From Minutocellus sp. GHC0000111 (taxonomy: Eukaryota), in contig OZ361260.1 in assembly GCA_977018835.1 (NCBI GenBank), forward strand, positions 3,534,001 through 3,598,000: DNA of 64,000 bases. The letters are read 5' to 3'. Both the position numbers and the translations under genes were made by a program. The notes below the pieces were generated by a model. That model made no database searches. It had not been told where the DNA came from and was given only the letters and a program-made list of their open reading frames with translations. This document shows, one piece after another, positions 12,421 to 49,566 of the stretch. Numbering within the stretch: the stretch's first letter is position 1; every line of letters begins with the position of its first letter.

Positions 12421-12616
12421 TGTTGACACCGTGGGATACATACGTACGTATACATACGTACGGTACGTACGGTGATCAGACCACTGACTCAGTGCCCTCT
12501 CCTGACCATTGATCCATGGGCCAACGACATCTCCGATGGCCCATTTTTCATCTACGTAGGTCCTATTAACCTCTACTAGCTATGTCTATCTAGCTTAGCT
12601 TTAGGACCTCTTAGCA
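12421..12616 (+). repeat. 5' LTR (196 bp)
   Basis: TGTTGACACC...CTCTTAGCA, near-identical to 18457-18654. Confidence 0.97.
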
Positions 12617-12912
12617 GACCTACGTGATGCATCTTTTCCACCCGTGCTCGCCCCATTTCGGTTCACACCTCACACCGGTTTGTCTTGGGTTCTCACTCGT
12701 CACGCAAGAAAACCGACACATCTTCAATCGGCCAAAACGACCGTTTCTTTCGACAACATTGGAACGACGATCCAATCCCTTCCCCGAAAGTCCTGACCAG
12801 ATCGACCCATCCAATCGATCACACTTCTCTGGATCGAACCTTATGTCGATCACACACGTCTCGCAGCAAAACACCGCCGTGCTGCCTGTCTTTCGCTGAC
12901 TGAAACACCAGC

Positions 12913-14199
12913 ATGAATCCCGACGCAGTTTTTGGCCAACCTCTCGGCGCAGCGCCGATTCTCCCCACCAAGTTAATCACACGCATGAATGACCCAGGAC
13001 AACCTCCCCAACGCGAGCGTGTTGCCAAAGCGCTCAAGGAACTTCAACAAGCGGCGGCCAGCATTCCAGCAGAGGGGGCACAATGACCACAACCTCGGCC
13101 ATTTGGGCCTCGTCGTCAGCGATGCCGAACACACCACCAAAAGCAACGGCCGACCACATGTGCCTCCGGCAAATGCTGGCCCCAGCCCCACCATTCCCGC
13201 CGTGGCCAATCTAGACCAACGCGATCGTGCAATCCGGGGATGTTACATCGAAAAGAGGGCCACTACAACTTGTACGAGCAAGTCAACACGGCGCTCAAGA
13301 ATCTCCTCCTCGACTCGATCGACGCCGTCTACATCAATCATCTCGAAGATGACATGCTCGGTTTCCAGCCAGTCACCATCCGCCAAATCATCGACAGCAT
13401 TACCGATCGCTACTTGAAATTCAACGAGACTCAGAAGGAGGAATTAGAGAAGCAGCTCGAGAAGCAGCACGACGGGGGACCCATCGACACCCACATCGCC
13501 ATATTCAACAAAGTCTTCAAGGCGTTTGAAACGGCCGGCGAACCCTTCACCAACAAGCAGAAGGTCTCCAAGTTCTACCGCTCCGTGCGCAGGTTCTCAT
13601 TGGCAAAGAAGGCATGCGAGGACTGGGACGACAGACCGGAGGCCGAACGCACGTGGGCCAACATGCAGTCGGACTTCCGCGATTGGTGTGATAAGAAGAC
13701 GGCCAACACCACCACCGAAGCGGCAGGATATCATGGCGCGAATTTGGCCTCATCGGCCTCGGACGATCCATTTCTTTCTCGAGCCGATCTCCTTTTGGCT
13801 GACACCACCGAAGCCCTCAAGACCAACCAAGCCATGATGGCGAACCTCGCCAAAAAGAGCAACGAGAAGGATGATGCCATTGCCAAACTTCGCCAAGAAA
13901 TAGCTTCACTCAAGGCCGAGATTCGCGTTCTGCGTGAGGGACGCAACCATGCTGGTGGCAGTGGAGGCTACCGCGGCGGTGGCCAGCAGAACGGCGCCGG
14001 CCACTTCCCAGGCCAAGGTCCTAACCTCAACCGCCAGGAGAAGCGGGAACTGCAGTCGATCCTCCCCAGAGGCCATCATTGCCACACGTGCGGCTATTCG
14101 TCCAACCACCCCAGCTTTGAATGCACTTGCAAAGGGCCCAACCACGTTGATAACGCCACCAAGTGCAATCCTTGCGGTGGTAGCTCGCGTCGTAACTGA
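12913..14199 (+). pseudogene. gag: gag (frameshifted near 13070 and 13255)
   Basis: GHLGLV motif and C-terminal CHTCGYSSNHPSFEC zinc knuckle. Collinear with the second copy at 47928-49210. Confidence 0.85.
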
Positions 14200-17100
14200 G
14201 CGGGAGGGACGGTGGACATTAATCAGCATAAAATTGAGGACAGCATGTCTGAATCCACCTCCTCCCCGCCTTCGTTAGCTTTTCTTACGTCAAAAAGCAA
14301 ACCTCCAACTCAAGAGCCAATCGTCCTCGCAGCAGATGCTGGAACGACGGGACATTTTGTCCAGAAGCCCCAACACCTATCGCACGATGGCCCTGTTTTC
14401 AACGTCCAACAGACAGCAATTCCTATCAGCGTCACCCTTCCGGACAACAGCACAATGACGAACACCCACGAGGCCACGCTTCGCCTCCCTGGGGTTTCCC
14501 CATCGGCTAGCAAGGCCCATGTTTTCAATGACATGACATCATCGCTCCTATCGATTGGGCAGCTTTGTGACGATGGATGTGTTGCCACTTTCGACAAGGA
14601 TTCGGCAGTCATCGCCAAGGACAATGCCGTCATTTTGCAAGGTAAACGAGACCCCTCAACGAAATTGTGGATGGTAGATCTTAATTGCTCGCCCACCATG
14701 TCGCCGCTCCCCGGCCCCAACGTCATCCAACATGCTGCCAACGCCGCAATTGCCCAGGAGACGGTTCCGGAACGTGTAGCCTTTTTACATTGGTGCGCTG
14801 GCAGTCCTCAGCTATCTACCTGGTGCAAAGCAATCGATGCGGGATTTTATAGATCTTGGCCAGGCCTCACATCAAAGCTTGTACGTAAGCACATGCCACA
14901 GTCGACACCGATGATTAAAGGTCACTTAGACCAGCAGCGCAAGAACATCAGGTCGACCAAGCCCAAACGGTCGATGGCTGCGCCAAAATCTCTCCCTGGG
15001 GTGGACGAAACCGAGCAGGATCTCCACCCGGCACAACACCAACAGCGCACCAACTATGTCTTTGCTGATTGTCATGACATAACGGGCCAGATCTTCTCAG
15101 ATCAGCCCGGCCGTTTCTTGGTGTCGTCTATTTCTGGCCACCAGCACATGACAATGGTCATATATGACTATGACTCCAACAGCATCTTGGCCGAACCAAT
15201 GAAAAGCCGATCGGGAACGGAAATGCGCCGAGCGCATTTAACTATTTTCGAATACCTCTCCAAGCGAGGATTTCGCCCAAAATTGCAACGATTGGACAAT
15301 GAAGTGAGTCGAGAGCTGAAGGAGTTCATGATGGAAGAAAAGGATGTAGATTTTCAATTGACCCCAACGCACTCCCACCGCCGAAATGCGGCCGAACGAG
15401 CCATTCGAACCTTTATGAATCACTTCATTGCGATTCTCTGTGGTGCCGATCCCGACTTTCCCCTCATCTTGTGGGATAAATTGCTGGAGCAGGCGGTAAT
15501 GACCCTCAATTTCCTGAGAGCATCCCGAGTCAACCCTCGACTATCAGCGTACGAGCAACTCAATGGCGGCTTTGATTTCAATCGCACGCCTCTCGGCCCC
15601 CTCGGATGCAAGGTCATCTTTCACGAGATGCCCTCGGCACGCGGCTCTTGGTCCCCGCATGGCGTTGATGGGTGCTATGTCGGTCCAGCCATGGAACACT
15701 GCCGGTGTTACAAGGTTTGGATTGAGGAAACTCGGGCGGAACTCACTGGTAACACACTCGTCTGGCTCCCCAAAATGATTCCGGTACCCAAAACGTCGTC
15801 GGCCGATGCAGCAACAGTCGCAGCTCATGAACTCCTGCACGCTCTACAGAATCCACATCCAGCGGCACCCCTTGCTCCCCTTCGAGACGAGCATCGTCAA
15901 GCTTTAGAAAAGCTCTCCGAGATTTTCAACAGCGTGACCCCAGCAGAATCTGCCACCTCCGCCTCTGATGAGACGATGCAGACAACCGCAGCTCCGAGGG
16001 TGCTGGAGAACGATGACGACTCCCAACGATTCCGCCTCGGCACCATCGTCGCCAAAGTGTTTGGAGATCGCAATTACAAGGGTAGAGTCGTTGCATTTGA
16101 CAAGAAGTGTAAGTGCTACAAAATCAAATGCGAGGACGACGACGTAGAAGAGATGAACGAGACTGAAGTAGGCCGTCACCTTGTCTCCAACCCCAACGCT
16201 CCGTTACCTCAGCCCCAGCAACCTCCGAGGGTGGCAAAATCCTCCACATATGATGCAGCCACCACTAAAACCCGTCGATCACGTCGATCCAACGCGCCAC
16301 CTCGCTCGTCAGTTTCTTCCAACTACTACAATCCTTTGGCTGCAGCAGACGAGCCCAACGGCGACGATGATGATGATCATGACGACGATGCAACCGTCGT
16401 AACATCCAATCAAAGTTCCAATGCCCCCACCTCCCGTCGGCAACGTAAACGCAAGTCTCCAACGATCGATACCAACCACACTCCAACATTACCAGCTCCA
16501 GCAAAATCGACAAGCAAGTCCAAACCATCGACCGCCATTCACCTCGACGATGATCATGCCGTCAGCGAGGGTGCATTCCACATCGGAACCCTCCCCCACG
16601 GCCATCATCTCGTCGTAGCACCCGCCACGTGGCCAACATGGCAGCTTTCTCGCCTTTACCAAACCTCCAACACTTTGCTAACGCCGTCGTCCATCCCGAT
16701 GCTGGTGCAATGCTTGAATACCGCGACCTCCTCAAAACGAACATGAGGGACCAATTCATTCAAGCAAACATCGATGAAATTGGACGGCTAACGGACGGCC
16801 GAGTTGGAAACAGTGCTAGCACTCCCTCCAACACAATGGCTTTCGTCCACTGGTCCGAACTGCCTCGGGGGAAAAAGCCACATGCCTCCGCATTGTCGCC
16901 GACTATCGCTCCCACAAACCAAATCCCAATCGAGTTCGATGGACTGCAGGAGGCGACAAAATTCATTACCCTGGTACAGTCTCGACCCCGACCGCTGAAA
17001 TGTTGACGACTGCAAAGTTACTTTTCAACAGCGTCATCTCTACAGACAAAGCTCGTTTCATGGGAATTGATGATGTCAGTGACTTCTATCTCAACAGCAC

Positions 17101-18408
17101 CATGCCAGAGCCAGAATGGATGTGGGCGCCAGTAGCTCTCATCCCCGACGAAGTCATGGAAGCCTACGACCTCCACGACAAAGTAAAGAATGGTCGAGCA
17201 TTGGTCAGAATCGATGGCGGAATGTGTGGATTACCCCAGGCAGGGCGCCTAGCCTGCGATCAACTTGTCAAGCATCTCAAACCCCATGGCTATTTCCCTT
17301 GCAAGCGCACTGCCGGCCTTTGTGGAGGCACAAAACCCGCCCAATTACCTTTTGCCTAACCGTTGACGATTTTGGAGTAAAGCATGTCGGGAAAGAGCAT
17401 GCAGACCATCTCATTCAGGCCCTCAACTCCAAGCACAAGATCACCACCGATTGGGAAGGCCGACTTTATTGTGGTGTTCAACTCGAGTGGAACTACGAGG
17501 CCAAATGGGTGGATCTGTCCATGCCTAACTACGTCAAGGAGATGCGCCACAAGTTCCAACACGACCGCCCCTCACGGCCCGAGCATGCGCCATGTCGATG
17601 GAATCGTCCGACGCATGGCCCGGGACCCCAGCTGCCAGAACCGGAAGACGACTCACCACCACTCGACGCCAAAGGCATCAACGAAATTCAACAGGTGGTG
17701 GGCAGCTCCTTGCACTATGGTCGAGCAATTGATTCAACAATTTTACCGGCGCTCAACAGCATCTCAGCGGAACAATCCAAAGCTACCGAGCGCACTCGAC
17801 AAGATGCCAAGAAGCTTCTAGATTACCTTGCAACCCATCCCGACGCAGTCATTCGATGCGTCAAGTCAGACATGATCCCACATGCACATGGCGACGCCTC
17901 CCACTTGTCAGCCCCCCGAAATCAAGAAGCAAGCTCGGAGGGTGCTTCTACCTAAGCTCCCGACCTAAGCACCCGCACCGCCAGCCTGACTCAAGTGATC
18001 CCATGCCACCAATGAATGGAGCCATCCTCGTCAATGCCAATGTCATCAAGCATGCAATGTCCTCAGCCGCTGAAGCCGAATTGGGAGGACCATTTTTCAA
18101 CATGAAAGATGCAGCACCAATCCGGGCAGCAGCACTAGAAGAAATGGGTCACCCGCAGCCCCCTACTGCCATCGTCATTGACAACTCTACAGCATCTGGA
18201 ATCGCCAATAAAACCGTCAAGCAAAGACGGTCTAAGGCTGTGGACATGAGATTCTGCTGGGTCCAAGATAGCATGGAGCAACGACAATTCCAGGTGCACT
18301 GACTGGCGGAAAGGAGCGCAAAATTTGGCCGATTATTTTACAAAGCACCATCCCGCCCGCTACCATGTCGACATGCGACCAGTCTACTTACATGTAGATT
18401 CCAATTAG
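14200..18408 (+). pseudogene. pol: pol: protease, integrase, Tudor-like domain, reverse transcriptase, RNase H; several frameshifts
   Basis: Protease D(A/T)GTTGHF. Integrase DQPGRF, RLDNE and NAAERAIRTF. RT DFYLN, GLPQAG and VDDFG. RNase H SSAAEAELG and KAVDMRF. Confidence 0.93.
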
Positions 18409-18456
18409 GACTCTACATGTAGATTCAATGGCACCAGTCATTGATCTGCGAGGGTG

Positions 18457-18654
18457 TGTTGACACCGTGGGATACGTACGTACGTATACATACGTACAGT
18501 ACGTACGGTGATCAGACCACTGACTCAGTGCCCTCTCCTGACCGTTGATCCACATGGGCCAACGACATCTCCGATGGCCCATTTTTCATCTACGTAGGTC
18601 CTATTAACCTCTACTAGCTATATCTATCTAGCTTAGCTTTAGGACCTCTTAGCA
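18457..18654 (+). repeat. 3' LTR (198 bp)
   Basis: Direct repeat of the 5' LTR with about 4 substitutions and a 2-bp insertion. Confidence 0.97.
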
Positions 18655-20222
18655 GCAGCAACGGCATTGACAATGGCGGCGGCAGCAGCAGCAGTCGAGA
18701 GACACGTCATCATCGTCGCGAGACGAAAACCGCCAACTTCGCGAACGCAGCGATGGCAAAGGGAGTCACACGAGGCGTTTTTCTTATCGGGAGACCATTC
18801 TGTTTTTGATCCCTGTTTATTGCGCCGCCAAATGCGGTGTTCGACGCCCTCAACAGAAGAGAGTGCGCCTTCCTGCCCGTGCGTTGCTTGCCCATGGCTC
18901 AAAAAGTGGAGCAGGCACTGCTCGGAGGAACCAAACCCCTGTCAACATCCATCTGTCCAAACAAATCCCGATTCCAAGATTGAAAAGCGAGAATGACATT
19001 TGCAAAGTGTGGCTTGCGATGCATCGGCATGATCGGCCAGTCGAGACACGTCGATTGCCGGCATTTTCGTGGCGTTGTTCAAAACGCGATCAGCCGAAAA
19101 TCAGCCGTTTCCGGGTGCCTTTTGGCATTCAGCTCAGCTAGCTAGCTAGCTAGCTAGCTACGCAGGATTTTCACACTCGCTCCTTCACGAAGAGCTCCAG
19201 CAGCGTGCAATGCAGACTGTCGCTGGCTACATGTAGAGGTGTGTCCATCTTTGTGCGCCCTTCTTGGATTGATTCCTAAACAAGGTTAACCATGGAACAG
19301 AACAGAGTGCAGAGAGGCAGGTGTCCATCAGTGGCGAGCAATGAGAGATCTCAAGTGTTGTAGCGGTGCGCGCGCAGTCCTGTCGTTTCGGCGGCTGGCT
19401 CAGCGACACGCCTGAGGCAGGTGTTGCACCTCACCCACCAAACGAGTTCTTCCTCCGTCTTGGCATCCCTCTTCGACAGTGCTCCCCTGTTCGTGAGCTA
19501 GCTTGCTTGCTCTGTTGCTGCCACCACCACCACTGAGCTTCAACCAACCAATGCGAGGTGCTCTCTCTCTTGTCTTGGTGCGCGTGCCAAAAGGTTTTCT
19601 AGAGCAGAGCTAGCTCTAGCTAGCTACGTACATGCAGCTGTGCTAGGTCCTGGTCTGCTAGTAGCTCAGCAGCATCCACCCGCCGCGTGCCTCTGCTCTC
19701 GGCCGCCATGGTGATGGCCCGCGCCATGCCGATGCGGCAATTAGCTGGCAACAAATTGCTGCGGACATGATGGGGGAGAAAAATGTCATGACCACACTGG
19801 GAAAAAAAGTGAAAAAAAAATGTTGAAGCGACAGTCACAATCCCGCTGAATTTGGTTGAAGTTCGACTATTCAATGACGTGTTTGCACGTGTCGAGTGTC
19901 ACGCATTCAACATTTATGGCATGAGAATTGCCACGTCGCAATCGTCCTTCCCCAATAAGTAATCTCGTGCTCCCATCTCTTCAAAGAATCCGAATGACAC
20001 GTCAAACCGGTGAAGCGGGAAAACAATCCCACACAACACGATCACATCGAGGCGTCAGCGCGAAGGGTGCACAAGATGCCACACAGCGTCGGCACTCCGC
20101 TTTACCGTCGCTGCTACTGTGCTCCATTACATCCACAGACCGACTCCACCAAAGCACTCTGTGTCATTCATCATCGCATCGCAATCTACGTGCAAGCGAC
20201 CAGACCAGCTACGACATTCACC

Positions 20223-21284
20223 ATGAACGTGAACATCTTAGAATTCAATCACCAGGGGATTCAGGGGAAGCGTTTTATTGACGACTTTACGTACCTCAGC
20301 AAGGTCACGAACTCCAGTGGCAACCTTGAAGTGTCAACCTCTCCTTCACTCTCTCTCCCTGATGATCAGAAGCCCAAAGGTGCGCCCAAGGGCAAGAACC
20401 TGGGCAAGATTAAGGGCAAGAGCGCCGGAAAGGACAAGCCCAAGCGCCGTCGCAATCTCTCTGGATATAATTTCTACATGAAGTATCATCGCACTGTCAC
20501 CGTATCGCCGGGAATGACGCTCGACATCCTCAACGACAGTCTCACCCACGAAGAGAAGCTCAAACACGTCCTCGAAGTCCTCGAGCGCGACCCGTGCCGC
20601 CTCCAGAGCGGACAGAAGAGACGTCATCGCAAGTCTCAAGGGGCCATTGGCTTCAAGGAGCTCACCATCCAGGTCGCCAGCTCCTGGAGGACTTTAGATG
20701 TGAGCGCCAAGAGCGTCTTCGAGGACATTGCCAGGCAGGCCAAGCATCAGACGCAGGAGAATGACTCCTCGTCGGAAAGCCGCCGTTCATCCTTTGAAAT
20801 TCAACCTGCAGCACAAGGATCGAACGTGCATGCTGTCCTCGAGGAGGCCCTTTTCTCTACCGGCACTACCAGCACTGGTAGCATGCCAAGCCTCGTTCAC
20901 TTCCAGAGCGACGGGACCACCTCCTCGGTCGCCACTGCCGGCACTGGCAGCACCGGGTTTGCCGCCGCACCACCACCATCTTCACTGCAGCAACCGATCA
21001 TCGGTGAAAACCTGAGTGCACCGGCGTTGATCGACGCCAATGCGACCACCAACCCCGTCGGATCGTCCTACCTGTGCGGCGATCTCTTCGAGCCTGCACC
21101 TCTCACAGTTACTTCGCAAGTGCCGGCAGTTCCGAGTGCATCTTTTTCGTTGAACGCAAGTTACAATTCCTTCAGCACGTTAGAACCAAGCCAGGAAGTA
21201 CATCCCAACAACAACAGCAGCAGTAGCAGCAACAACAACGAGCTAGCTTCCTTCCTCTCCAGGCTAGACTGGTCTCAACTCTGA
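20223..21284 (+). CDS. HMG-box protein (diatom-type, with insertion in the box)
   Basis: KPKRRRNLSGYNFYMK...RRHRKSQGAIGFKELTIQVASSWRTLD..KSVFEDIA. Confidence 0.85.
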   Translation: MNVNILEFNHQGIQGKRFIDDFTYLSKVTNSSGNLEVSTSPSLSLPDDQKPKGAPKGKNLGKIKGKSAGKDKPKRRRNLSGYNFYMKYHRTVTVSPGMTLDILNDSLTHEEKLKHVLEVLERDPCRLQSGQKRRHRKSQGAIGFKELTIQVASSWRTLDVSAKSVFEDIARQAKHQTQENDSSSESRRSSFEIQPAAQGSNVHAVLEEALFSTGTTSTGSMPSLVHFQSDGTTSSVATAGTGSTGFAAAPPPSSLQQPIIGENLSAPALIDANATTNPVGSSYLCGDLFEPAPLTVTSQVPAVPSASFSLNASYNSFSTLEPSQEVHPNNNSSSSSNNNELASFLSRLDWSQL

Positions 21285-21483
21285 GAGAGTTCACGACTTG
21301 CAACGACTTCCTGTTTCCATGTCATGCAGATGTCTAGATCTTGGTCTACGAAGATCTACATATAAGGCATGGTGGCATGCACATAAAATTAAGCGATGCA
21401 AGCGCAAATGTAGATTCTACATGTGTAGACGTCTTTAACATATTTGTATGTACACACATGATTGTACATGTAGTCTTTGTAGA

Positions 21484-22963
21484 GAGCGTTTCCACGAGAC
21501 CGCCGACAAAATGCTCGAAAATTGTAAGGCACTAGAAAAACTTTTTGTGCGACAATTTATGCAGTACAAAAAATGAAGCCACTAACTAGCCTCACTCAAC
21601 ACGACGAAAGCAAGGGAGAATTCATCTCCACAAGAAGGCCACCAAATGATGATATTACGATAAATTGCTCCAATCCAACCTATGCATGCGCCAACTACAT
21701 ATATTAGGTGAGCATTGAATACTTGAAAGCACACCCATTCGTACATCATGTGCTATTTTAGCAATATCTCCTCAGACCAATGAAATCTCAAATATTTAAC
21801 CCCTCAAAATGGCAAAGAACATCAGCTGGCGCTTGTCTACACCCTTTTGCATTCCCCCTGAGCATCAATACTTCCACTTGGGTCACTCAGTAAGTGATTC
21901 GGCGCCAAGGGGTCGGTATTGGACCCCAACTTTGCGTCTTCGTGGCCGTCACTATGAAAAGAAAAAACATCCGAAACAAGCGATTCCCCAACTACAACCC
22001 CCCTCCAGCCCCAATCACTGTTCCTTCACGCAATGTCAGCACACACGATACTCCTTCTATATTACATCCATCGATCCCACGTGTTGGTTTGGCCGCTTTG
22101 CCCGGGTTCTTTCCTCTCGGGCGGCAGAAGCAATGAAGGGGCAATCTGTTGCCGACACCAGAAACAGGACGTTGGGCACATTTTTCGCGAGCAGTTGTGA
22201 TGATATGCTGTCATGGCGTGGTATGCACACATGGGCGCTGCGGCGACGGCTCAGTGCGACGGAAGGGACGCATAGACAACGAAACAGTATCAGAACCAAC
22301 TTCGGATGGGTGGTGACATGGGGGTGGTGTCGCTGCGGGGCAACATTTTTCAGCGCAGACACGGATCAACGCCCCGCTATCGCCAAGCAATCCTTCCCAG
22401 TAATATTCAGGAAGGCAACGAGGTGGCCAGAGTGTGTGCGATGGCCAGGGTGGTGCTGTACATCGGGCGAACACGGGTCCTGATGGAACGTCGGAAACTG
22501 TCGAAAAAATCGGGTCTGACGCGAATGACTTTTTCAAGCCTCAAAAAGGTAATCGCAAGTCCCCTGCTGCATCACAGTGTTGTGGAAGACTATTCCAAAG
22601 GTACGGTGCCCCGTATTCTTGTTTAGTTTCAATGGGAGGCACATCGGCAACACATCTTGTGGCACCTCTTGTTTGAGCAAATGGGTTTCGTTTTATGATG
22701 AAATTCGATAAAAAATTTTCTTTCTCTCAAGCAGCACAGCTATATCAATCCACAAAAAATAAAATTTAAGACCAAATCAAAACACTCTCTTCCGTATCTA
22801 TAAGATGTGCTAAATTAACACCCAAGATCATTGTACCAAAGTAATTTTATTGTTGATTATGGTCTACAACATCCTTCTAAGCAGTAATCAGCAATAAAAT
22901 TACTTTGGTACAATGTTTACGAAACATCGCGGAGGGGGTGTCTGCTCTCTCGTGGAAACGCTC
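21484..22963. mobile_element. Non-autonomous TIR DNA transposon, Sola-like termini (GAG...CTC, 4-bp TSD TAGA)
   Basis: GAGCGTTTCCACGAGA at 21484-21499 is inverted at 22948-22963. TAGA lies on both flanks (21480-83, 22964-67). No convincing coding region inside. Confidence 0.75.
22829..22915. repeat. 31-bp inverted repeat (1 mismatch) with a 25-nt spacer
   Basis: CATTGTACCAAAGTAATTTTATTGTTGATTA at 22829-22859 versus its reverse complement at 22885-22915. Confidence 0.9.
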
Positions 22964-29389: not shown

Positions 29390-30655
29390 TTGATTGATGG
29401 AACAGCACCAATCGCTGTCGGCCGACGATAAGATCTTTTGGGAGGCCAAGAGTCGGGAGAAGATTGCCCTCCAACCTACCATCCGCGGCGCTATTGTTGA
29501 TGCTATGCGGAGTGATCCAAAGATATCTTGGGAGAGTATTGAGGCCGACGATGCCATCAATTATTGGTGCAGTGCAGACACACTGTCCGACGGTGGGTTG
29601 AGTCTCGAGATGGATGTTGTCTCTGTGCCGAACGGATTATTCCTTTGCTGAGCAATGAGCAGAAGGCTAGGCACTTCCACTTCGCTACTCGTTTCCGTAA
29701 CAACTGGGGGTTGGGCGCAGGCAAATATCTGCTCATTCACTACGACGAGAAATGGTTTTGGGGCTTGGTTCAGCGCCGCCACGCCAAGGCATGCAAGGAG
29801 TTGGAGCTTGACCCCGTTTCGTTCAAAGCCTATCACAGAAACCATGTGAACAAGGTAATGGGTGTCGCTGTAACTGCTTTTGCTTTCGAGGATTCGATTG
29901 AAAACTGTGGTGATGCTCTCAAGCTTGGATTCTTTCGGGCCCAGCAGTGCAAGATCGCCGACAAGGCTGTGAATCGGACGGAGACTCTGGCTGATGGCAC
30001 CGAGGTCACAACCAACGTTCGGAATCGTGATGATCCCTACCTTGTCGATTGTGCTGTTACCGGTACTGATATTGGTACCCCTGACGATCCCAAGTTTCCG
30101 CTGAAGAATTTATTTGAACAATATGTTTTTCCTACAGTTGCTGAGCTCGTCGGTGAGGGGGCAGCATGCGAGCGGCACACTCCGGTCTTCCAAGGCGACA
30201 ATGCCGGTCCTCATGAGGAGACCAAGTGCTTAGATTTCGTCAAGGGATATTGTTTGGCAAAGGGATGGCATTGGAAGCCTCAGGCACCGCAAATGCCGCA
30301 CATGAATGTACTTGACTTGTCGGTCTTCCCCTGCATGTCTCGGCGTCATTGCTCTTTGGCTCGGAAGAGAAAGGGATTGAGGGTGCTGAAGGAGAACGAG
30401 ATTTGGGATGCAGCTGTGGAGGTTTGGGATGGTTTGGAGTCGGCCAAGATTTCTTCAGCATACATTCAGGCCCACAGGATTGCAAAGAGGGTGATTGATG
30501 CTGGGGGCGGTAATGAATTCCTTGGTGTCGGTGGATCCCCTCATGTGGGCATTCGGAAGGATTTTTATCCAACGAAAAAGGGTCTGGCTCGGCGTGATGG
30601 GCAGCGAATTCCTGCTCCTGGGACCGTAAATCCCCATGACATGGTCGCAATATAG
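29390..30655 (+). pseudogene. Second mariner-like DD38D transposase (frameshifted near 29580)
   Basis: YDEKWF, FQGDNAG, QAPQMPHMNVLDLSVF. Clearly homologous to 8818-10542. TIRs not located. Confidence 0.85.
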
Positions 30656-31056: not shown

Positions 31057-32698
31057 ATGAGCAAAAAAAACAACGGCCGCAATCCCGCGGTCAACGCCGC
31101 AGACAGAGTTGCGGTGCAGGACGCCCTGGCTGAACCACTCGTCCGTCTTCGCAGAAAGGAACTTCATTACTACAATTTCATCGGCAACAACAACGACTCC
31201 TTGATGAATGTGTTGGGATGCAGTCCCATCATGTACGGCGCCGTCATGTGCACTGCGGGCATCTTGGGGGTTTGAAGAAGAAGAAACAACACGAAGACTG
31301 CGACATGTGTTTTTTGTGAGGACAGACAACCAGAATGGATGGGATGAAGTGGTATCAAGACACTGCCTTGCCAACGACGTTCAGCGAACCCCATGCAAAA
31401 AGAGCATGTTTGTTTGCCTCGGTTCTGTCAATCCTCGTGCAGCCGACGCTCTCCATGATGATGGATGGATGGCTTTCGACATGGTCACGGTCGAGCAACA
31501 ATTTCGCCTCGAAATGCCGCCGCCGCGGCTCAATTTGACGAAGGCATGCAATGCATTCCTCAAGTCGGTCGCAAAACACACATCGGTGGGACATGCGGCG
31601 ATGGACTACGAAATCAACAGGCAGATGTTGCTCGAGGCCCAGAAGTTCCCTGGTGGGTGCAATGGCCAGGACGATGGGTGGGACAATGACGACGATGTTG
31701 GGACGGTGGGCACCCTGACCACGACGGAGGCCGGCGAGATCAGTGAGGACGATGACGACGAAGACGAGGACTATGTGCCCTGTTATGAGGACGAAGCTGA
31801 TGTTGCAAGAGAGGACGCTACACATGAAGCACACATGCAGCAGCACTTTGAGAAGAATCGTCAGAAGCACGGTGATGGCGAGCCAGAGATGGGAGCTGTC
31901 GATGATGCCGAGGATGACGATGCCCCTCACTTCCATTTCCTGAAAAAGGCCGGCATTGAGGCGGCCGACTCAGGCAAAATAAGGGCAGTGCTGGCAGAGT
32001 GCTGGAGAGCTTCATCTGTTAATATTTCTGATGGCAACAACAAGAAGAAACCAAGGACAATAGAGTTCATCCACCACAACACCTCCACCAAAGGAACTCT
32101 CCTAGAGCACAATCGCGAGGAAGATGGCATGACGGATGACGACATCAAAGAGCTCTGCAAAGCTTGCTCTAATTTGCTCCACACTCTTGATGCAACATGT
32201 TCCAGGTTTCTGAAATGGCACATGAAATGGGATGATGAGGCAAAGAAGGCTGTGAGAGAGCTTGAAGCATTGATTGCAAGTGCCCTCAAGCAAGCACGGG
32301 CAATCGGTGTTAGCATGACGCCCAAGTGGCACTTACTCGAAGATCACATCTTGGACCAACACATTTGGCTAGTGAAGAATGGATGGGGCAGCATCTGTTG
32401 GCTCGACGAATCGTTTGTAGAGCGAGCCCACCAAGAGGGCGTTAAGGAAGATCGTCGGACTCAGGGCGTCAAGGGACATGAGGCCCAACAGACGGCGCAG
32501 TTCAAGGCTGAGGAGAGGGCATCCAATCCAAAGGTCGAGGAGAGGCGGGAGCGAAACTCTCGTGTGGCAAGAACAAGGAAAAGGACAAGGACCGAAGCTG
32601 TTAAAGCAGAAACTGATGACAAGCGCCAACAAATGATCATGATGGCCACCGATGGAGATGAGGATGTAGAGATGGGAGCAGGGCATGCACAAAATTAG
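31057..32698 (+). pseudogene. Degenerate transposase-like sequence (Transib/Chapaev/RAG1-like C-terminus)
   Basis: TPKWHLLEDH...G..CWLDESFVERAHQ resembles the HKxxxH...GxxSEExxExxxK C-terminal catalytic region. Frameshifted and TA-depleted. Confidence 0.45.
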
Positions 32699-38522: not shown

Positions 38523-38677
38523 TTTTGACTTGCGGAATTATGAATGCATCGGAATTGCTTCTTGGGTGCAATCTATCTATCTGGCGCTCTTTTGATCTGA
38601 CTTCGGCGCGGCGTCAATTATGCCTCCGGGTTCTCTGCGACTGACTCATCTCATTCTCGTTATTCAGCTCTTTCAAC

Positions 38678-39798: not shown

Positions 39799-40436
39799 CT
39801 AAGGCGGCGTTACTCCTTCGCTGACGCTCCACTTCGTCACTCGATCATGGATATCTGCAATTCGTGCGCTCTGAACTTCCACGGCAAGCATTGCGATATC
39901 TGGCCCAATGATGAATTGTGGGTACCGAGGATTCGCCCTCAAATGAGCCTGTCTGAACCGGTCCGCATCTGGACCGGCCTCCACGATGTAGCACCTGCCA
40001 TTTAGTGTAATGGAAGCGCCTGTGCTCTTTCCATCGTCAAACTGGTGGAAGTCATGGACGAGAAGGGCGACACCATTCTGATTTTGCAGCATATTGAATT
40101 TCTTTGTGTTGATATTCGTACTCATGACGATGACACCGTCCTCCTCAAGGAATGTAAATCTCATCAACGAGAGATGAGAAGTGTCATTCTCAGCATCGAC
40201 AGTGGCAAGATACGTTAGTTTGCATCGTTTCAGCACATCCTTGACCACCGGCGGGAAATCAGAAAAGCATATGGAACCCCTCTTAAACTGCTCACGAAGG
40301 ACCTCGATGTTCTCCTGACGTGCCTTCTCCTGCCGTCGCCTCCTTGTGCTTGGAAGATGGCAAAGGCTGGAATGAGGGCAAACAACGCCAAACTGAGAGA
40401 CGTGCCGGTACCGGTACTCGTACTCCCGGTCGCCAT
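39799..40436 (-). CDS. Pyridoxamine 5'-phosphate oxidase-like FMN-binding split-barrel protein; apparent frameshift near 40345
   Basis: YLAT...HLSLMRFT...TKKFNMLQNQNGVALLVHDF...SITLNG. The N-terminal TM segment is in another frame. Confidence 0.75.
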
Positions 40437-40880
40437 AGTTGATTGATTGGCAGACAAAATGCTTCGTCTCAGTGTCGGATTACTAGTACGACAAATGGAG
40501 TGCGTAATGTGCTATCCAGCCCTCTCGCCTTGATGCTGGTGTTGCTGCCTTGTTCCTTGCGTTCTTCAGGTCGCTGGGCCACTGCCGCTGCATGCATAGT
40601 GTTTTCCTTGCATGATGCTCTTGCTTGCCAATCGTGACGTCGAGTCGAGTCGAATAAGTCCATTCTTGGCCAGAGGCCAGCTTGATCTCCCAGCCACCCA
40701 CCAAGCGCGAATGGACCGGCAATATGGTACCGGTAGATCTGCTAAATGCTTTGTAGAGTAGATGGATAGCTTTTCATGCAGGAATCCTAATAGGAAATTC
40801 CTATCTCAAAATTTACATTCTAACATTGATCTATTCATGTCTTCAAAAATTTCGATTCGATTTTTTCTCCAAGAATTGAA

Positions 40881-43289
40881 TCAAAGACTGTCCTCAATGT
40901 CTCGGATGTCCCGATTGCTGCTGATTCGTCGCCATAATCTTCTCACACCGCCGTGACTTTCAGTCGATGCATCACTCTCATCTTCCGTTCCGCCCTTTGC
41001 CTGGGAAGCAGCATGAGCACTGCCCCGCAACTCCTTATGTGGTGCATTGTCCGTGATGGTTCTTCTCGATGGGGCCTGAGGAGGTGAAGCATCTTGGCCC
41101 GAAGCATTGGCAATAGTCGGTGGCTGCGTTACCTGAGACTGTCCAGGGACATAATCATCGGTAATTCTAGTATTGGCATCCACCTCCTGACAACCGCATG
41201 CTTCTAATCTGTCAGCAAAATCTTGGATGTCCGCTTCCATGGTATCCATGTCTTCATAGGCTGCCACAAGTGCTGTGCTTAAATCTTTGCTTTTGGCCAT
41301 CCAGCTGTCCACTTCTTTCTTAGTGTCTTCAAATGTGGGACAGGTTGGGATCATTGGATGAACGAAACCATAATTGGCATAAATTACGTCCTCACAATCT
41401 CCAGAATAATAAAAAGTAATCTCCTGACCCGGCTCAAAGCTACAGGTAGCAACTACGTTGAAGGTATGGGTCAATACATCATATGAGCCTCGAGTGCACG
41501 GCGGTCCAAAATTGAGTAGATCTGCCAGAGGTGCCAAGAAGGAGTGGGATCGAGGATTCATTACCACATGTCGACTTTCTGATTCGTCGCTGGACACCAC
41601 TCCCTTTACAACATCCTCCGATGATTCGGACCGCTCATTACTTTCTCGGCTATTTTCGACGGCGCCAGTACCTGCCACTTGCTGCTCGACAAATACGTCT
41701 GTAGGCTGAGCGGCAGGTGGAGTTTCGATGCCATCTACGCCGATAGATGACAAGTGTTCAGAGGCGCCTTCGTGTGGCGGTAAATCCACTCCCTCACCCT
41801 CGACGCTCACACTATTCTGACCACCGTTCGGGGTTATGGCTGGCGCACTCATTCCACCAGTAGCACTAGTGGACAATGCCAAAGACACAGGACGCATGAC
41901 GGCTTCACCAGCGTCATCCAAGTCTAGGACGGGTACATTCCAATGACGAGAGTTCACAACAGCAAAAGCCCAACTGAAACGATCGAAGGAAAAGGCCCAA
42001 TCGTCGATAACATCACCCTGCTCACTTTTCGGCGGGCCAAATACGTCGGGAAAATCTTTGACGAGAGCCCCCATGGCAGTCACATACATGTCTCTCATGT
42101 CGTCCTGCACTTCACCAATGACCTTCCTGACGCCATCCGAAAACCCCTGACGACGAAACTGCGCATGATCGAGTAGAAAGGGCATGCTCTCCACAGGCGC
42201 ATCTCGCATGGAGTCAATGTACTTCGATAGAGGACTTTGATCACCAAGCACATGCGCATGGTACAAAACCGCCACGATGAGGAGCGGTACTTCGTAGAAG
42301 CGAGCGTTGGCCCCATCCCATCCGTATTCTGATCGCTGCGCTGGTCCCAGCACGGTGGAGAGAACCGGATCGTGATCAATCGTCGTCTGGACCGAAATCA
42401 TGGCATTGAGGGGTATAGAAATGATGGTCTCTCCCGGCGATATCGGCTGAGTGGCGGCCAATCCGCGAACCGGGACGGTGGGGATGGCATCGGTATCTGG
42501 AGGGGTGATTCCTGCTCGGCTAGATGTGCTGCTAATGCTGTCATCATTACCAAGAACGGATTGGACGGCCCGAACGGTGGCCAGTTCCGCATGATAGGCA
42601 TCCCACGCGGCTCGTTCTGCGAGATAGTCTGGGTAGTCAAATGTTCGGATCTCCACGTGCGGCATTTTGATCCCCATCACATGCTGGCTCCACCACAAGA
42701 AGTCACCATTTTTCTTCTCCGTGGACTCATCGTTGGCGGCACGATCAGGCAGTACCGGTGCCACCACAGGAGTCTTTTCATCATTAGATATGCCTGGAGG
42801 GACCGGCGGAGAGTTCCTATTCAGATCTGATACAAACGCACTCTTTGGCTTTGGGGTTGCCTCGTCGGCGGCATGGGAGCTGACTTTCTCTTCGTTGGAG
42901 TTCGGTCGGCCAAACTCTCCAATTTCTTCCGCACCACAAACGCTCAGTCCGCCACCACCCGCACCCAAAAGGAGGAGGGCCGCCGCACCAGCGTTTCGAA
43001 TTTTCATTGCCTTCGTTCTTCGTCTGTGCGCAAGTCTATCTTCTGCTCTTCTTGATTCCCGCACCAGACTACCACCAGCACACGAGCTACGAGTAGTGCT
43101 CGCCGAAATCGGAATTCCGAGGGCCATTGCTTGAGCATCAGGATACGCTGGTTTCCGTCTGCGGGATGGCTCTGATTCTCGAGCTGATTCTCGAGCAAAT
43201 GGAACATGCCCCTCCGATGCACCATTTATAATAGAAGGCGGGGCGGGGCGGGCAGCAGCAACGAGTCGCCTCTTCCTGGAGTTCACCAT
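40881..43289 (-). CDS. SET-domain protein (Rubisco LSMT-like)
   Basis: RGLAATQPISPGE, FSWAFAVVNSR, LAPLADLLN, GQEITFYY...NYGFV. The start codon is uncertain. Confidence 0.85.
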   Translation of the reverse strand: MVNSRKRRLVAAARPAPPSIINGASEGHVPFARESARESEPSRRRKPAYPDAQAMALGIPISASTTRSSCAGGSLVRESRRAEDRLAHRRRTKAMKIRNAGAAALLLLGAGGGGLSVCGAEEIGEFGRPNSNEEKVSSHAADEATPKPKSAFVSDLNRNSPPVPPGISNDEKTPVVAPVLPDRAANDESTEKKNGDFLWWSQHVMGIKMPHVEIRTFDYPDYLAERAAWDAYHAELATVRAVQSVLGNDDSISSTSSRAGITPPDTDAIPTVPVRGLAATQPISPGETIISIPLNAMISVQTTIDHDPVLSTVLGPAQRSEYGWDGANARFYEVPLLIVAVLYHAHVLGDQSPLSKYIDSMRDAPVESMPFLLDHAQFRRQGFSDGVRKVIGEVQDDMRDMYVTAMGALVKDFPDVFGPPKSEQGDVIDDWAFSFDRFSWAFAVVNSRHWNVPVLDLDDAGEAVMRPVSLALSTSATGGMSAPAITPNGGQNSVSVEGEGVDLPPHEGASEHLSSIGVDGIETPPAAQPTDVFVEQQVAGTGAVENSRESNERSESSEDVVKGVVSSDESESRHVVMNPRSHSFLAPLADLLNFGPPCTRGSYDVLTHTFNVVATCSFEPGQEITFYYSGDCEDVIYANYGFVHPMIPTCPTFEDTKKEVDSWMAKSKDLSTALVAAYEDMDTMEADIQDFADRLEACGCQEVDANTRITDDYVPGQSQVTQPPTIANASGQDASPPQAPSRRTITDNAPHKELRGSAHAASQAKGGTEDESDASTESHGGVRRLWRRISSNRDIRDIEDSL

Positions 43290-43649
43290 TGTCGCTGTTG
43301 GTTCAAATAATAAAACGACGAGTTTCACTTGCTGCGGCAAGAGCACATACTGGTGCAATACGCCAGTAACAAAAAAAATCACACTTTCCGGCGCAGCCGG
43401 AACTTTCCAGAAAGTGGCCGCGCAGCAGCGGCCACGTGTCGCCGCGAGGAACGGACGACGCCGGGACGGCGCACCGCGCGCGCCGGCCGCGCTTTCTGGA
43501 AAGTGCAAGACATCCAGTGAGACTTAAAAGCGCTGCTGACGTGGCGAATTCTTTCCAGAAACCCCCTCGAAATCGCGCACCCGAATCACATCACGCACCA
43601 TCACAACAAATAAATTAGATCTAGTACATGTGTTACGAGAGCTACATAT

Positions 43650-45167
43650 CTACTTACTGCCGCCGCTTTTGCGTAAAAAATGAGAATCAAGTGATGTCTG
43701 GGAGTTGCTTTCCGATGCCTCCTTCATGCTGCTTGCTTTGTGCTTAGTTTTGATCTTTTGGGCTCGCGAACCCACACCAGAGTGTCCATCCTTGTGGTTG
43801 CCATCTTCGGGAGAGCCTTCCATCTTATTTAGCAGGTCTAGTGCACGCCGAGAAATACTGCGGACTTCATCTTCTAGAGCCTGATCGCTGTGGCCTGTTT
43901 TGCACAGGAATTTCTTCTCGTCGTCCTCAACGACAGCATCGAGAAGGTCAAGACAGTGGTTGTGCTTGGCGTTGTCTGTAAACCTGCCCGGTCTCTCCAA
44001 ACCCGTACAAACAAATCCATCGTTCAGCAGACCCTGTTTGTATGCACCGGATATGATGTCATGCAACGCAGTTCCTCCATGAAGTTGATCGGCGTCGACG
44101 CTGTCGTAATTCTTCTCCAATTCCACCTCTTCAGGTTGGTAATACAACTGCACAGGGGTGCTGGTAATAAAACTTTCGTCTGTCTTTCTCTTCTTGCTGG
44201 ACTTGGGCTCGGGCGATTTCGGCAAATTGAACATACTTCCCATCTTTTTTGAAAACTTCACAATTTCCTTCCGATCTTGTCGCTCGTCCTCAAGCAGAGT
44301 CTGGAGCAGAATGTTCTGTCTCTTCAGGTCGGCAAGTTCGTTCGAAAGCTGAGACAGCATTTGAGATTGCTGATTGAGAGTATTGATAACTTGAATGCTA
44401 TTGCTAGCATTAGTAAGAGGCTGGAAATCAGGATTAAGGGATTTGAAGTCTTTCAAGATGAGCTCGGACCAGCATTTGAGAGCTCCAATAGAAGTGCCAC
44501 AGGAGGAGCGAGAATCCAATATGTAGCATATTTTTTCCAATATCCTCAACATTGAGGAGGTTCATCCAGTGGGGAGGCGCGGTGGTAGTTTCTCCATCCC
44601 CATGACGAGCTTTCCGATACAGAGCAAGCTTCGGCTCCTGTCCGAAGGTGTCACTCTTTTGCTGTTGGCTGCGTTGGCAGGCCTTCTTAAAAGATGCACC
44701 AGAAAACTCTCCACGTAGACCATCGTCTTTCCAGAGAGGGTCGTCAGGGCAAATCTTCTCCAGCAAATTCAGTGCCTTGCCCAAATATTCGTTGAGGGTC
44801 GTGTACTTGAGGAATTTCGATGGGACGAGACTGGAATCGTTGAGATACTTTTCAAAATTGAGTGGTATGTTAGTATCTGCGAGCCATGTGGCATGTGCGC
44901 GGCCCAACTGCTCGATGCCGCCGTCCTCGAGATACGACGGGTCCAAATCGGAAGAAGCAACACCGCCAAACACTTCGATGAGAACGTGATCGAAAAGTTT
45001 TATGCCGGACCCATCGGCGGCTTTTGTAGAATCGGCGCGGCCCATATCGCCTGCCAGCCTTGCCGCGCCGGCAGCACCTTGTTGTGGAGAAGGCTGCTGT
45101 ACTGTGCTCTTCTTCTGCAGCGCCGCCGCAGCGGTCTGCTTTCCTTGCGCTCGCAGCATATTCATGT
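43650..45167 (-). other. Two overlapping ORFs of unknown function, probably a degenerate mobile element
   Basis: ORFs 44434-45429 and 43650-44552 switch frame near 44550. They are bracketed by clusters of CTTTC(C/T)(A/G)GAAAG-like motifs. Confidence 0.35.
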
Positions 45168-45603
45168 CGAGGAATAATGAGGTGCTGCTGCTTTCGAGCG
45201 CAAATGAGCGATCGCTCACATGATGTGCAACCCGATCGCCAAACTCTGGCGATTGGTTTTGACACTTGTTTTTCCGCAAGCCTGCCCAGCCTGTAAAAAA
45301 ATGAAAACCACACCATGAATCGGGACATTGTTTCACACTTTCCAGCTTTCTGGCGCTTTCTGCAGAAAGTTCGTTTTTATCTCCCAAAAAATTTGTGGTG
45401 CTGCAGTAATGGCGTACGTAAGCCAGCATGATCGTACGTATTACGTACTGAAGTACGGTACGAATTCCCTACGGTTGCAACGTCAGCCGAGCCCCCGCCG
45501 CCTCTCTTTCGCAGCATCCTTCGAAGGAACACCAACGTTCATTAGCATATTATTGACCGAAAGTCCAAACGGTGGCGACCAATAGCAATTGAAACCCAAA
45601 ACA

Positions 45604-46242
45604 ATGCGTCGCTTCGCCGGTATTTTTCCCGGGGCACGATTTTGTTTGTTTGTCGTACTCCTTTTTGGGCACCTTGGCTCGGCGTCTGCCTTTCAGCAGC
45701 AGCAGCAATTGGGAAGATCGACAACAGTGACACAATGTCATCATCACAACCACCATCAACATCATAAGAGGCGGCAGCTAATCATCACAAACAGGAAGGA
45801 GGGTGACTCGAATCGAAGAATTCCTCTCGCTTCGACCGCATCTTCAACCGCGGCAGATGGCTTCGGCGACAGTGGTTCCAATGCCAAGGAAGCACGTCGT
45901 CGCATTGCTCTTCCAACCGTGACATCCGATGGTACAGTGGCCAAGACTTGTGCCGCCACGGCAGCCACCGTCATTACCTACATTGTCAACAATCAGTACA
46001 ACCTCGAACCTGTCTTGGGATCATCCGTGGTTGCTCTGGCATCGGCGATTGCACTTGGACCCAATCGCCCGGTCATGCAACTTGCAGCGCTTTGCGGATC
46101 CTTCGCCGGTATGGCTCGGCAGGCCGTCATCCCAAGCCCGGCCGCTGCCGTGGTGTTGGGTTTGGTCTGCTCGTACATGATTCGGCTGTTTGATCGGCAA
46201 AAATGGCTCATTGGAAAAGGTGGTAGGCTGGGCTTCATAGCC
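45604..46242 (+). pseudogene. Plastid-targeted membrane protein gene, 3'-truncated by a copia fragment
   Basis: ASA-F targeting motif, TM helices, CGSFAGM and GGRLGFIA. The frame then runs into antisense copia RNase H sequence. Confidence 0.6.
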
Positions 46243-46258
46243 GGAAAGCAAAAAGGTA

Positions 46259-47313
46259 TTACCATCCACAGAGCTTCTTGCGAAGGTATAGAAAAGTAGA
46301 ATCATCCAAGGGTTTGGTGAAAATGTCGGCGGTCTGCTCTTTCGTATCAATAGGAAAGATCTGGATCGCCTTACTCTTGACATAGGACCGGAAATGGTGA
46401 TATTTCAGGGCGATATGTTTCGTCCGAGGAGTAAATTTGTTCGCCTCGGCGATAGTAATTTCAGAGCGATTGTCCTCAAATACCTTGCAGTGAACTTGCG
46501 GTTTCGGCATCGGAATGTCGATAATACAGCTGATCTCGATGAGCATATTCATCAAAGGAATGACTGTTCGCATAGCTTGACTCAAAGCAATGTATTCGGC
46601 CTCGGCCGTACTGAGGGCAATCTCGGTTTGAAGCTTGGACATCCAAATGACGGGGCATCCAGCATACATAATGACAAAGCCAGTACGAGACATAACGTTC
46701 TCGGCACTATCGGCGTCAGCTTGACTCCATCCACCGGCGAAATCGGCGTCGACAAAGCATTCGATACCACGGGTGGGATCTGGCTTATAAACGATGCCTC
46801 GCTGGGGATCTCGAAGTAGATATCGGGCGATTCGCTTGACTGCTTTCTCGTGAGAAAGCTTTGGATCATTGCAGAATCTAGCGCATTGATGAACTGCCAT
46901 AGAGAGTTCCGGCCGAGTGTTGCTTGCAAGGTAGTTAAGCATACCGACTGCTGCACGATAGTTCCAAGAATCTTTTCGTGGCTTGCCGTCTGCATCCTTG
47001 TGAAGTAAAGGCTTGGTGGCAGGAATGGTCTGATTGGCATTGGTCATGCGAGGATCCAGGCCGACAAATTTCGTGATTCGCTCGATTAAAAATGGCTGGA
47101 TCATTTCGAAACTTTTGTCGTCGGGATTGTCGTTGCGGATGATTTCGACACCGAGACACTTCTGGAGCGTCCCGTCGTCCGTCAACTCGAACCGATCCTT
47201 GAGTAATGCAACAGTATTATCTATCACTGATGAATCCCTAGAGATAAGAATGCAATCGTCAACATAGCTCAATAAAATGATGTCCTCACGGTAGAAAACA
47301 CATGGGGGTCAAC
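46259..47313 (-). mobile_element. Ty1/copia RT-RNase H fragment (different family from the 12.4-kb element)
   Basis: YVDDC, YRAAVGMLNYL, TRPE, FVDADFAG, ALSTAEAEY, RTKHI, ADIFTKPL. No LTR or PPT downstream. Confidence 0.93.
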
Positions 47314-47480
47314 GTGCGTTGGATTGTGCAAAGTTGAAAAGGGGGGGGATGGATCTCCAATCAATCAATGTGAAAGTGCACGCCAAACTCGTCGTGAGCG
47401 CATGATCGGCGAGAGAGGTGGGATCGGGTAAAAAGAGCCACCGGGATGAAGAAGCCCCACCCCAAAAGCATGAGGACGGT

Positions 47481-49566
47481 GGTGATCAGACCACTGACTC
47501 AGTGCCCTCTCCTGACCGTTGATCCATGGGCCAACGACATCTCCGATGGCCCATTTTTCATCTACGTAGGTCCTATTAACCTCTACTAGCTATGTCTATC
47601 TAGCTTAGCTTTAGGACCTCTTAGCAGACCTACGTGATACATCTTTTCCACCCGTGCTCGCCCCATTTCGGTTCGCACCTCACCGGTTTGTCTCTTGGGG
47701 GTTCGTTCTCACTCGTCACGCAAGAAAAACCGACACATCTTCAATCGGCCAAAACGACCGTTTCTTTCGACAATATTGGAACGACGATCCAATCCCTTCC
47801 CCGAAAGTCCTGACCAGATCGACCCATCCAATCGATGATCACACTTCTCTGGATCGAACCTTCTGTCGATCACACGTCTCGCAGCAACACCGCCGTGCTG
47901 CCTGTCTTCGCTGACTGAAACACCAGCATGAATCCCGACGCAGTTTTTGGCCAACCTCTCGGCGCAGCGCCGATTCTCCCCACCAAGTTAATCACACGTA
48001 TGAATGACCCAGGACAACCTCCCCAACGCGAGCGTGTTGCCAAAGCGCTCAAGGAACTTCAACAAGCGGCGGCCAGCATTCCAGCAGGGTGTACAATGAC
48101 CACAACCTCGGCCATTTGGGCCTCGTCGTCAGCGATGCCAAATACACCACCAAAAGCAACGGCCGACCACATGTGCCTCCGGCAAATCCTGGCCCCAGCC
48201 CCACCATTCCCGCCGTGGCCAATCTAGACCAACGCGATCGTGCAATCCGGGGATGTTACATCGAAAAGGGCCACTACAACTTGTACGAGCAAGTCAACAC
48301 GGCGCTCAAGAATCTCCTCCTCGACTCGATCGACGCCGTCTACATCAATCATCTCGAAGATGACATGCTCGGTTTCCAGCCAGTCACCATCCGCCAAATC
48401 ATCGACAGCATTGCCGATCGCTACCTGAAATTCAACGAGACTCAGAAGGAGGAATTAGAGAAGCAGCTCGAGAAGCAGTGCGACGGGGGACCCATCGACA
48501 CCCACATCGCCATATTCAACAAAGTCTTCAAGGCGTTTGAAACGGCCGGCGAACCCTTCACCAACAAGCAAAAGGTCTCCAAGTTCTACCGCTCCGTGCG
48601 CAAGTTCTCATTGGCAAAGAAGGCATGCGAGGACTGGGACGACAGACCGGAGGCCGAACGCACGTGGGCCAACATGCAGTCGGACTTCCGCGATTGGTAT
48701 GATAAGAAGATGGCCAATACCACCACCGAAGCGGCAGGATATCATGGCGCGAATTTGGCCTCATCGGCCTCGGACAATCCATTTCTTTCTCGAGCCGATC
48801 TCCTTTTGGCTGATGCCACCGAAGCCCTCAAGACCAACCAAGCCATGATGGCGAACCTCGCCAAAAAGAGCAACGAGAAGGATGATACCATTGCCAAACT
48901 TCGCCAAGAAATTGCTTCACTCAAGGCCGAGAACCGCGTTCTGCGTGAGGGACGCAACCATGCTGGTGGCAGTGGAGGCTACCGCGGCGGTGGCCAGCAG
49001 AACGGCGCCGGCCACTTCCCAGGCCAAGGTCCTAACCTCAACCGCCAGGAGAAGCGGGAACTGCAGTCGATCCTCCCCAGATGCCATTATTGCCACACGT
49101 GCGGCTATTCGTCCAACCACCCCAGCTTTGAATGCACTTGCAAAGGGCCCAACCACGTTGATAACGCCACCAAGTACAATCCTTGCGGTGGTAGCTCGCG
49201 TCGTAACTGAGCGGGAGGGACGGTGGATACTAATCAGTATAAAATAGAGGATAGTATATCTGAATCCACCTCCTCCCCGCCTTCGTTAGCTTTTCTTACG
49301 TCAAAAAGCAAACCTCCAACTCAAGAGCCAATCGTCCTCGCAGCAGATACTGGAACGACGGGACATTTTGTCCAGAAGCCCCAATACCTATCGTACGATG
49401 GCCCTATTTTCAACGTCCAACAGACAGCAATTCCTATCAGCGTCACCCTTCCGGATAATAGCACAATGACGAACACCCACGAGGCCACGCTTCGCCTCCC
49501 TGGGGTTTCCCCATCGGCTAGCAAGGCCTATATTTTCAATAATATGGCATCATCGCTCCTATCGAT
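47481..49566 (+). mobile_element. Truncated second copy of the CoDi-like copia element (partial LTR 47481-47626, gag 47928-49210, protease)
   Basis: Near-identical to 12471-14555. Confidence 0.95.

Follow-up and report, generated by a model that had tools for sequence, protein, structure and literature searches.

TpA-specific substitution on both strands in some transposon copies of a diatom genome

Mobile elements of the window

We analysed a window of 64,000 nucleotides from contig OZ361260.1 of Minutocellus sp. GHC0000111, in which some transposon copies carry a strand-symmetric, TpA-specific and copy-specific DNA change, with TpA replaced by TpG or CpA. The window is diatom DNA: among named sequences, those of diatoms are closest to its 2-oxoglutarate dehydrogenase, and proteins of Phaeodactylum and Fragilaria are closest to its copia pol. 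Interspersed with ordinary genes are two copia copies, two mariner-type elements, a transposase-like open reading frame (ORF) and an unrelated copia reverse transcriptase (RT) fragment.

The two copia copies lie where the first-pass annotation had placed them (copy A from 12421, copy B to 49566). Copy A is a full long terminal repeat (LTR) retrotransposon on the forward strand (12421-18654), with an LTR pair, TG...CA ends and a 5-bp target duplication, GCAGC, at 12416-12420 and 18655-18659. Its interior is heavily hypermutated and frameshifted, and its LTRs (5' LTR, 12421-12616; 3' LTR, 18457-18654; both +) are spared. Using tblastn with the intact relative P0001, we recovered its pol in four frame pieces (14200-18441, +) that cover protease, integrase, a Tudor-like domain, RT and RNase H; the gene is broken by TpA changes plus small duplications. 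The Tudor-like domain (PF21743, E=7.5e-11), at 16030-16180 between integrase and RT, also occurs in the closest relatives of this pol and may be a chromatin-targeting module.

Copy A is inserted in a low-copy repeat with no assigned strand, of which both the left part (11206-12420) and the right part (18660-19200) are hypermutated; the ends are approximate, those of the left part being taken from depth bins, and the depth there exceeds single copy. An empty-site joint from 12408 to 18655, representing this repeat without copy A, was found in contigs of three of the four sequencing runs that we compared. Copy B (47481-49566, +) is truncated at both ends and lightly hit.

Substitutions between the two copia copies

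Copies A and B are 96.6% identical over 2097 aligned columns, with substitutions in 48 columns. At 25 of these, B has TA and A has TG (9) or CA (16), so both strands are affected; the reverse, TA in A and TG in B, was seen once. Four columns make up two CA/TG double sites (13468 and 13803), and the other 18 consist of 7 transversions, 6 other transitions and 5 CpG-type changes. An earlier hand count of 28 TpA-type sites was thus correct, while its "about a dozen" other substitutions was too low. Among the 65 TpA of copy B, 25 read TpG or CpA in copy A. When each strand is counted, 25/130 TpA sites changed versus 7/817 other A/T sites (Fisher p=5e-17), showing that A>G and T>C changes are confined to TpA.

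The flanking bases have a strong influence on the hit rate (R, purine; Y, pyrimidine), which is 18/21 at RTAY, 4/11 at RTAR, 3/20 at YTAY and 0/13 at YTAR. On the strand of the changed A, a pyrimidine after the A has an approximately tenfold effect and a purine before the T an approximately twofold one. ApA>ApG changes amount to at most 2/249.

The two double sites had been presented as opposite-strand hits on one ancestral TA. The CA/TG pairs are present, but CG>CA and CG>TG yield the same pair, and we therefore did not accept these sites as proving an ancestral TA. Position 13803 is partly resolved, since the DNA outgroup L001 has a Thr codon there, which disfavours a CG ancestor; 13468 is not, L001 having no alignment at that site.

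Copy A and copy B are also unusually rich in short insertions. Relative to intact P0001, copy A pol has nine private insertions of 2-6 nt, mostly visible tandem duplications, together with two one-base losses, and one more 6-nt insertion is common to the whole family. Between copies A and B there are 10 indel events, compared with 18 non-TpA substitutions, in regions that include 12600-13260 and 47690-47840. Copy B also bears short duplications though it is barely hit, so the duplication bias is probably separate.

Direction of change

The A/B pair alone cannot tell loss of TpA from a gain of TpA like that of repeat-induced point mutation (RIP), and outgroups were used for this reason. Copy A pol was scored against three intact relatives, P0001, P0149 and P0155, which belong to clusters with representatives 74-86% identical to the query. 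Conserved Tyr was lost at 20 of 43 positions, every time to Cys (11) or His (9), and none of 42 conserved Cys/His became Tyr. A single TpA loss explains 32 of the 59 departures from conserved residues, and TpA gain explains none of them. The first-pass annotation had named a series of altered Tyr motifs; MCGLPQAG, GVKHVG, VIRCVKSD and DASHLS, as well as the protease change DTG>DAG, were borne out by the outgroups, and LACDQL and MRFCWV are present but fall outside the scored columns.

The same direction is seen in 15 further copia copies, the listed members of the closest cluster (113 members), which lie on contigs of 0.6-3.3 Mb. These contigs may not belong to the window's own assembly, as four ORFs of the window, at the start positions tried, have no entry in the protein collection. 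In these copies 158 of 370 Tyr cells read Cys or His, and the reverse was found in 1 of 334 cells. The claim of TpA loss made from the sequence is therefore supported in copy A and in its relatives alike. Each of the 15 copies has its own pattern of Tyr loss, and both Cys and His occur among the copies at 22 of the 43 Tyr sites, which indicates independent hits on either strand of one and the same TpA. Over the 43 sites in 16 copies, Tyr codons after a purine gave 63 Cys and 66 His in 206 cells, and those after a pyrimidine 33 Cys and 6 His in 186 cells. The balance after a purine, with the 9 TG and 16 CA of copy A, agrees with the strand symmetry that had been proposed.

At the DNA level, L001 (76-78% identical) could be aligned at 20 TpA-type sites, and matches the base of B at 15 of them and neither copy at 3. 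We also compared the window with contigs from four public runs, runs with a small word share being left out. In the contigs of run X1, the family majority departs from the window mostly by C>T (59 places) and G>A (51), versus A>G at 36 and T>C at 24. Among the 40 displayed of 301 differences, a set chosen by support for the non-window allele and drawn from contigs that drop rare variants, the reads have TA and the window TG or CA at 23, and the reverse holds at 3. Related copia elements in 80 metagenome loci have Cys/His in 18 of 1362 cells at broadly conserved Tyr, compared with 8 of 23 in copy A, and copia clusters 3 and 4 have them in 2 of 548 Tyr cells; these loci and clusters are mostly short collapsed contigs and are uninformative on absence in other species.

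Short reads confirm mutated alleles of the window. An Illumina RNA contig from run X7 (12027-12470), which spans the insertion junction, carries the TG/CA of the window at four positions (12121, 12131, 12224 and 12262). At 12073 it reads TA, unlike the window, which suggests one further hit, as expected if changes accumulate in place; recombination is an alternative.

Hit and spared sequences

In order to compare elements and genes, we used the RTAY share, the number of RTAY sites over all TpA. It discriminates better than plain TpA observed/expected (o/e), for which the first-pass annotation had proposed sliding windows; in 1-kb windows it gives a poor separation of elements and genes, since TpA is scarce in coding DNA to begin with. 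The RTAY share is 13/127 in the interior of copy A versus 218/598 in 15 host ORF stretches (p=1e-9). As host control, the gene for 2-oxoglutarate dehydrogenase E1 (OGDH; 58627-61962, -) was scored in the same way as copy A against relatives 78-84% identical. It is not hit: none of its 27 conserved Tyr became Cys or His and four became Phe, which differs from the 20/43 of copy A (p=7e-6). The earlier statement that host genes keep their conserved Tyr holds for this one polarised gene, and RTAY composition agrees.

DNA transposon-like sequences are also affected. A multicopy transposase-like ORF (31208-32698, +), with many copies on Mb contigs, is strongly hit, with a TpA o/e of 0.25 and a TG+CA o/e of 1.45. 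Seven of its eight scorable outgroup Tyr are Cys or His, and the reverse is 0/15. In 38 copies of the family, the cells at Tyr of P0445 comprise 93 His, 84 Cys, 48 Tyr, 45 Phe and 3 other residues, with 11 columns mixing Cys and His and a reverse count of 0/377; P0445, 58% identical, is the single outgroup, and some columns may therefore be family-level changes. Its RTAY share is borderline (p=0.058). This ORF has no Pfam match; Atlas points weakly from it to RAG1/Transib-type proteins (0.89), and also to diatom clusters without a name (0.94). Mariner-type transposase 2 (29543-30655, +) is moderately hit: as had been noticed, it has Cys, Cys and His at three of four conserved Tyr columns, where mariner 1 has Tyr, Tyr, Phe and Tyr, and its RTAY share is not reduced (9/27).

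The repeat that received copy A carries hits to the left and to the right of the insertion. Its RTAY share is 1/23 with both parts combined; TA in the reads and TG/CA in the window account for 15 of the 18 listed differences in the left part, and TA in the reads and TG in the window for both of the two listed in the right part.

Other mobile sequences are nearly spared. Mariner/Tc1-type element 1 (8635-10910, -), which has 34-nt inverted ends and a weak PF01498 match below the cut-off, retains an RTAY share of 30/75 and shows 2 TpA-type changes among 5 listed differences. Its contig depth in X1, approximately 10,200 versus 82.5 for single copy, corresponds to more than 100 copies. The reported change in its target duplication was found, with flanks of TA (8633-8634) and CA (10911-10912), and is a single site. 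Copy B keeps TA at the 25 sites where A has TG/CA and has a host-like RTAY share (21/53). The unrelated copia RT-RNase H fragment (46259-47308, -; PF07727 weak, below the cut-off) is mostly intact and likewise host-like (15/47); the Cys of its KCLGVEI motif, cited earlier as another instance of the pattern, is present but could not be polarised, no outgroup having been found.

Within copy A itself, the first 50 bases of either LTR still have 9/9 RTAY sites, and the 3' LTR has 10 intact RTAY sites in all. The 5' and 3' LTRs differ by three CG/CA pairs, one TG/TA pair and a 2-nt indel. The nine optimal sites lie in a TACG/TACA-rich tract (12436-12470 and 18472-18506), with heavily hit DNA on both sides, and LTR differences within this tract are CG/CA. 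Such sparing suggests that a bound protein, or another chromatin state, protects the tract. Every clear target is a repeat, but mariner 1 and copy B are nearly spared. The proposal that the process acts on repeats, DNA transposons included, thus stands for the transposase-like ORFs but is too broad, given the sparing of some copies within a hit family, of the high-copy mariner 1 and of the LTRs. Targeting appears to be by locus, even at the sub-element level, rather than by repeated status.

Discussion

To our knowledge, eukaryotes that defend themselves against mobile DNA by mutation do so at cytosine (RIP, APOBEC, 5-methylcytosine decay). An adenine-directed mutational defence so far rests on a single preprint. 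Mettrop et al. describe there a de novo TpA>TpG/CpA hypermutation of integrated DNA of nucleocytoplasmic large DNA viruses and virophages in Bigelowiella natans, with a de novo rate raised about 1000-fold and active in a subset of lines; they propose an ADAT2/3-like enzyme, and suggest transposons as targets from an enrichment of TpA-poor Pfam families (bioRxiv 10.64898/2026.01.13.699255). The signature is thus already described, this 2026 preprint being the only published report that we found. Both cases consist of TpA>TpG and TpA>CpA only, on both strands, at the DNA level and in foreign or mobile DNA; the restriction to mobile DNA is seen here in the contrast between copy A and OGDH, the one polarised host gene. 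Bigelowiella differs in being rhizarian, with changes measured de novo in single-copy viral inserts, and the available portion of the text gives no flank rule, nor does the word "diatom" appear in it. No diatom report of TpA hypermutation was found in the literature searched, subscription journals being outside its coverage. New here are the host group, the direct demonstration on transposons, polarised per copy in copia and transposase-like families, and a partial saturation that exposes the flank rule, together with the spared LTRs.

On balance we favour a mechanism in which TpA is converted to TpG/CpA after insertion by a candidate TadA/ADAT-type adenine deaminase of the host that acts on DNA and would be guided to repeats in silenced chromatin. 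The A would be deaminated to hypoxanthine and then fixed as G at replication, and hits would build up in place, locus by locus, across many generations, with targeting that would track chromatin state, not copy number. Action in place is indicated by the hits in the repeat on both sides of copy A and by the four window alleles shared by the junction RNA contig. A TadA-type enzyme is favoured because TAC, which matches RTAY, is preferred by TadA-derived editors (PMC8065034); the de novo spectrum in Bigelowiella, for which an ADAT is proposed, points the same way. These editors share with the diatom process the A>G outcome; the natural substrates of TadA/ADAT are tRNAs, unlike the genomic DNA changed here. 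TpA loss makes no stop codons, so frames remain long and open but laden with missense changes; loss of conserved Tyr and of the protease motif would nevertheless inactivate the elements. A putative DNA-editing enzyme behind such rewriting would likely cripple transposons, and a role in defence is plausible. A broader proposal, that a natural chromatin-guided adenine deaminase edits diatom DNA at R-T-A-Y, destroys transposons and represents an ancient defence of the SAR group (stramenopiles, alveolates and Rhizaria) shared with Rhizaria, is tentative, and we lean somewhat against it.

Several observations weigh against the favoured mechanism or limit its reach. L001 agrees with the base of copy A at 2 of the 20 alignable sites, and two LTRs have TG at a site where a third has TA. 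The copies share ancestry, so that the Tyr cells are not independent events, and their flanks were taken from the window copy. The host control consists of one polarised gene and the composition of 15 ORF stretches. Since mariner 1, which depth puts at more than 100 copies, and copy B escaped nearly all change, neither family has been stopped by the process. The TadA motif derives from engineered editors acting on single-stranded DNA, and A>G on one strand is, from sequence, indistinguishable from T>C on the other.

This last point leads to the rival that survives best, the same targeted DNA process with the lesion on T: an oxidised or otherwise modified T at R-T-A would mispair with G and be fixed as C. 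In a variant, a modification of A such as N6-methyl would precede deamination. Thymine-oxidising TET/JBP enzymes and the mispairing of 5-formyluracil provide a background for such a lesion. The sequence data are symmetric in this respect and R-T*-A(-Y) is another way to write the flank rule, but the data hold no positive evidence for a T lesion and the TadA motif match favours A; we regard it as unlikely, though worth serious attention.

Error-prone gap filling of the Pol eta type, in repair patches within methylated repeats, is improbable. In somatic hypermutation, Pol eta produces A:T transitions with TA, a WA site (W, A or T) on both strands, as a hotspot (PMC7884765), and small tandem duplications are frequent in copy A. 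However, WA includes AA, also a Pol eta hotspot, and AA>AG is at most 2/249 here versus 25/130 for TA, which largely refutes the canonical WA spectrum; copy B, moreover, has duplications though barely hit.

Editing or error during retrotransposition, by ADAR-like RNA editing or RT misincorporation, is very improbable. The best-documented target is a retroelement, and ADAR prefers a 5' U (bioRxiv 10.64898/2026.01.13.699255). Yet ADAR-type hyper-editing affects one transcript strand and ADAR2 has a UAG hotspot (PMC10661471), whereas the strands here are hit equally and YTAR stands at 0/13. The flanking repeat DNA and the transposase-like ORFs are also hit, so the first-pass view that RT error and RNA editing are unlikely, and that the action is on DNA, is supported.

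We attach little more than nominal weight to a long-read base-calling or polishing artefact at modified bases. At most displayed differences the contigs of the two best-matching runs have only the majority allele, as contigs that drop rare variants would in any case, and read-level support spans only 8.5-22 kb, with the check on this artefact resting on one contig; that X7 contig, however, has the mutated alleles at four sites in short-read data of another study, which argues against base-calling error, and the patterns differ copy by copy.

RIP introduces transitions densely, at specific dinucleotides and on both strands, thereby ruining repeats in place. It targets repeats by C>T (PMC7296669). 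It resembles the diatom process in form and opposes it in chemistry, making TpA from CpA where the diatom process removes TpA. A misread polarity, with CpA>TpA and TpG>TpA changes in copy B, would give the same dinucleotide pairs, CpG-type changes exist (5/48) and the RID-related DNMT4 is present in diatoms (PMC9998398); it is scarcely credible, as the outgroups have Tyr at positions that read Cys/His in copy A (reverse 0/42 and 1/334) and the read majority is TA. Fungal-RIP-type C>T at CpA is ruled out by the polarisation, with TpA gain at 0/59 and TpA loss at 32/59 departures.

If the adenine deaminase mechanism is true, it would be an adenine counterpart of RIP and APOBEC, a natural adenine base editor. 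With saturation only partial in this diatom, the sequence directly displays site rates as well as strand and flank preferences, against which candidate enzymes can be compared. In genomes of this kind a Cys/His-rich "gene" can be a decayed transposase, and dating by LTR divergence would miss TpA damage because the LTRs are spared.

Additional features

An HMG-box gene (19998-21284) adjoins the hypermutated block and has a low RTAY share (5/27, p=0.065, borderline); a spread from the block into host DNA at this gene is possible. Two adjoining ORFs at 43650-45468 (-) lack a Pfam match and show no TpA depletion. At 21500-22000 the contig depth reaches approximately 9,000-14,000, which marks another high-copy repeat.

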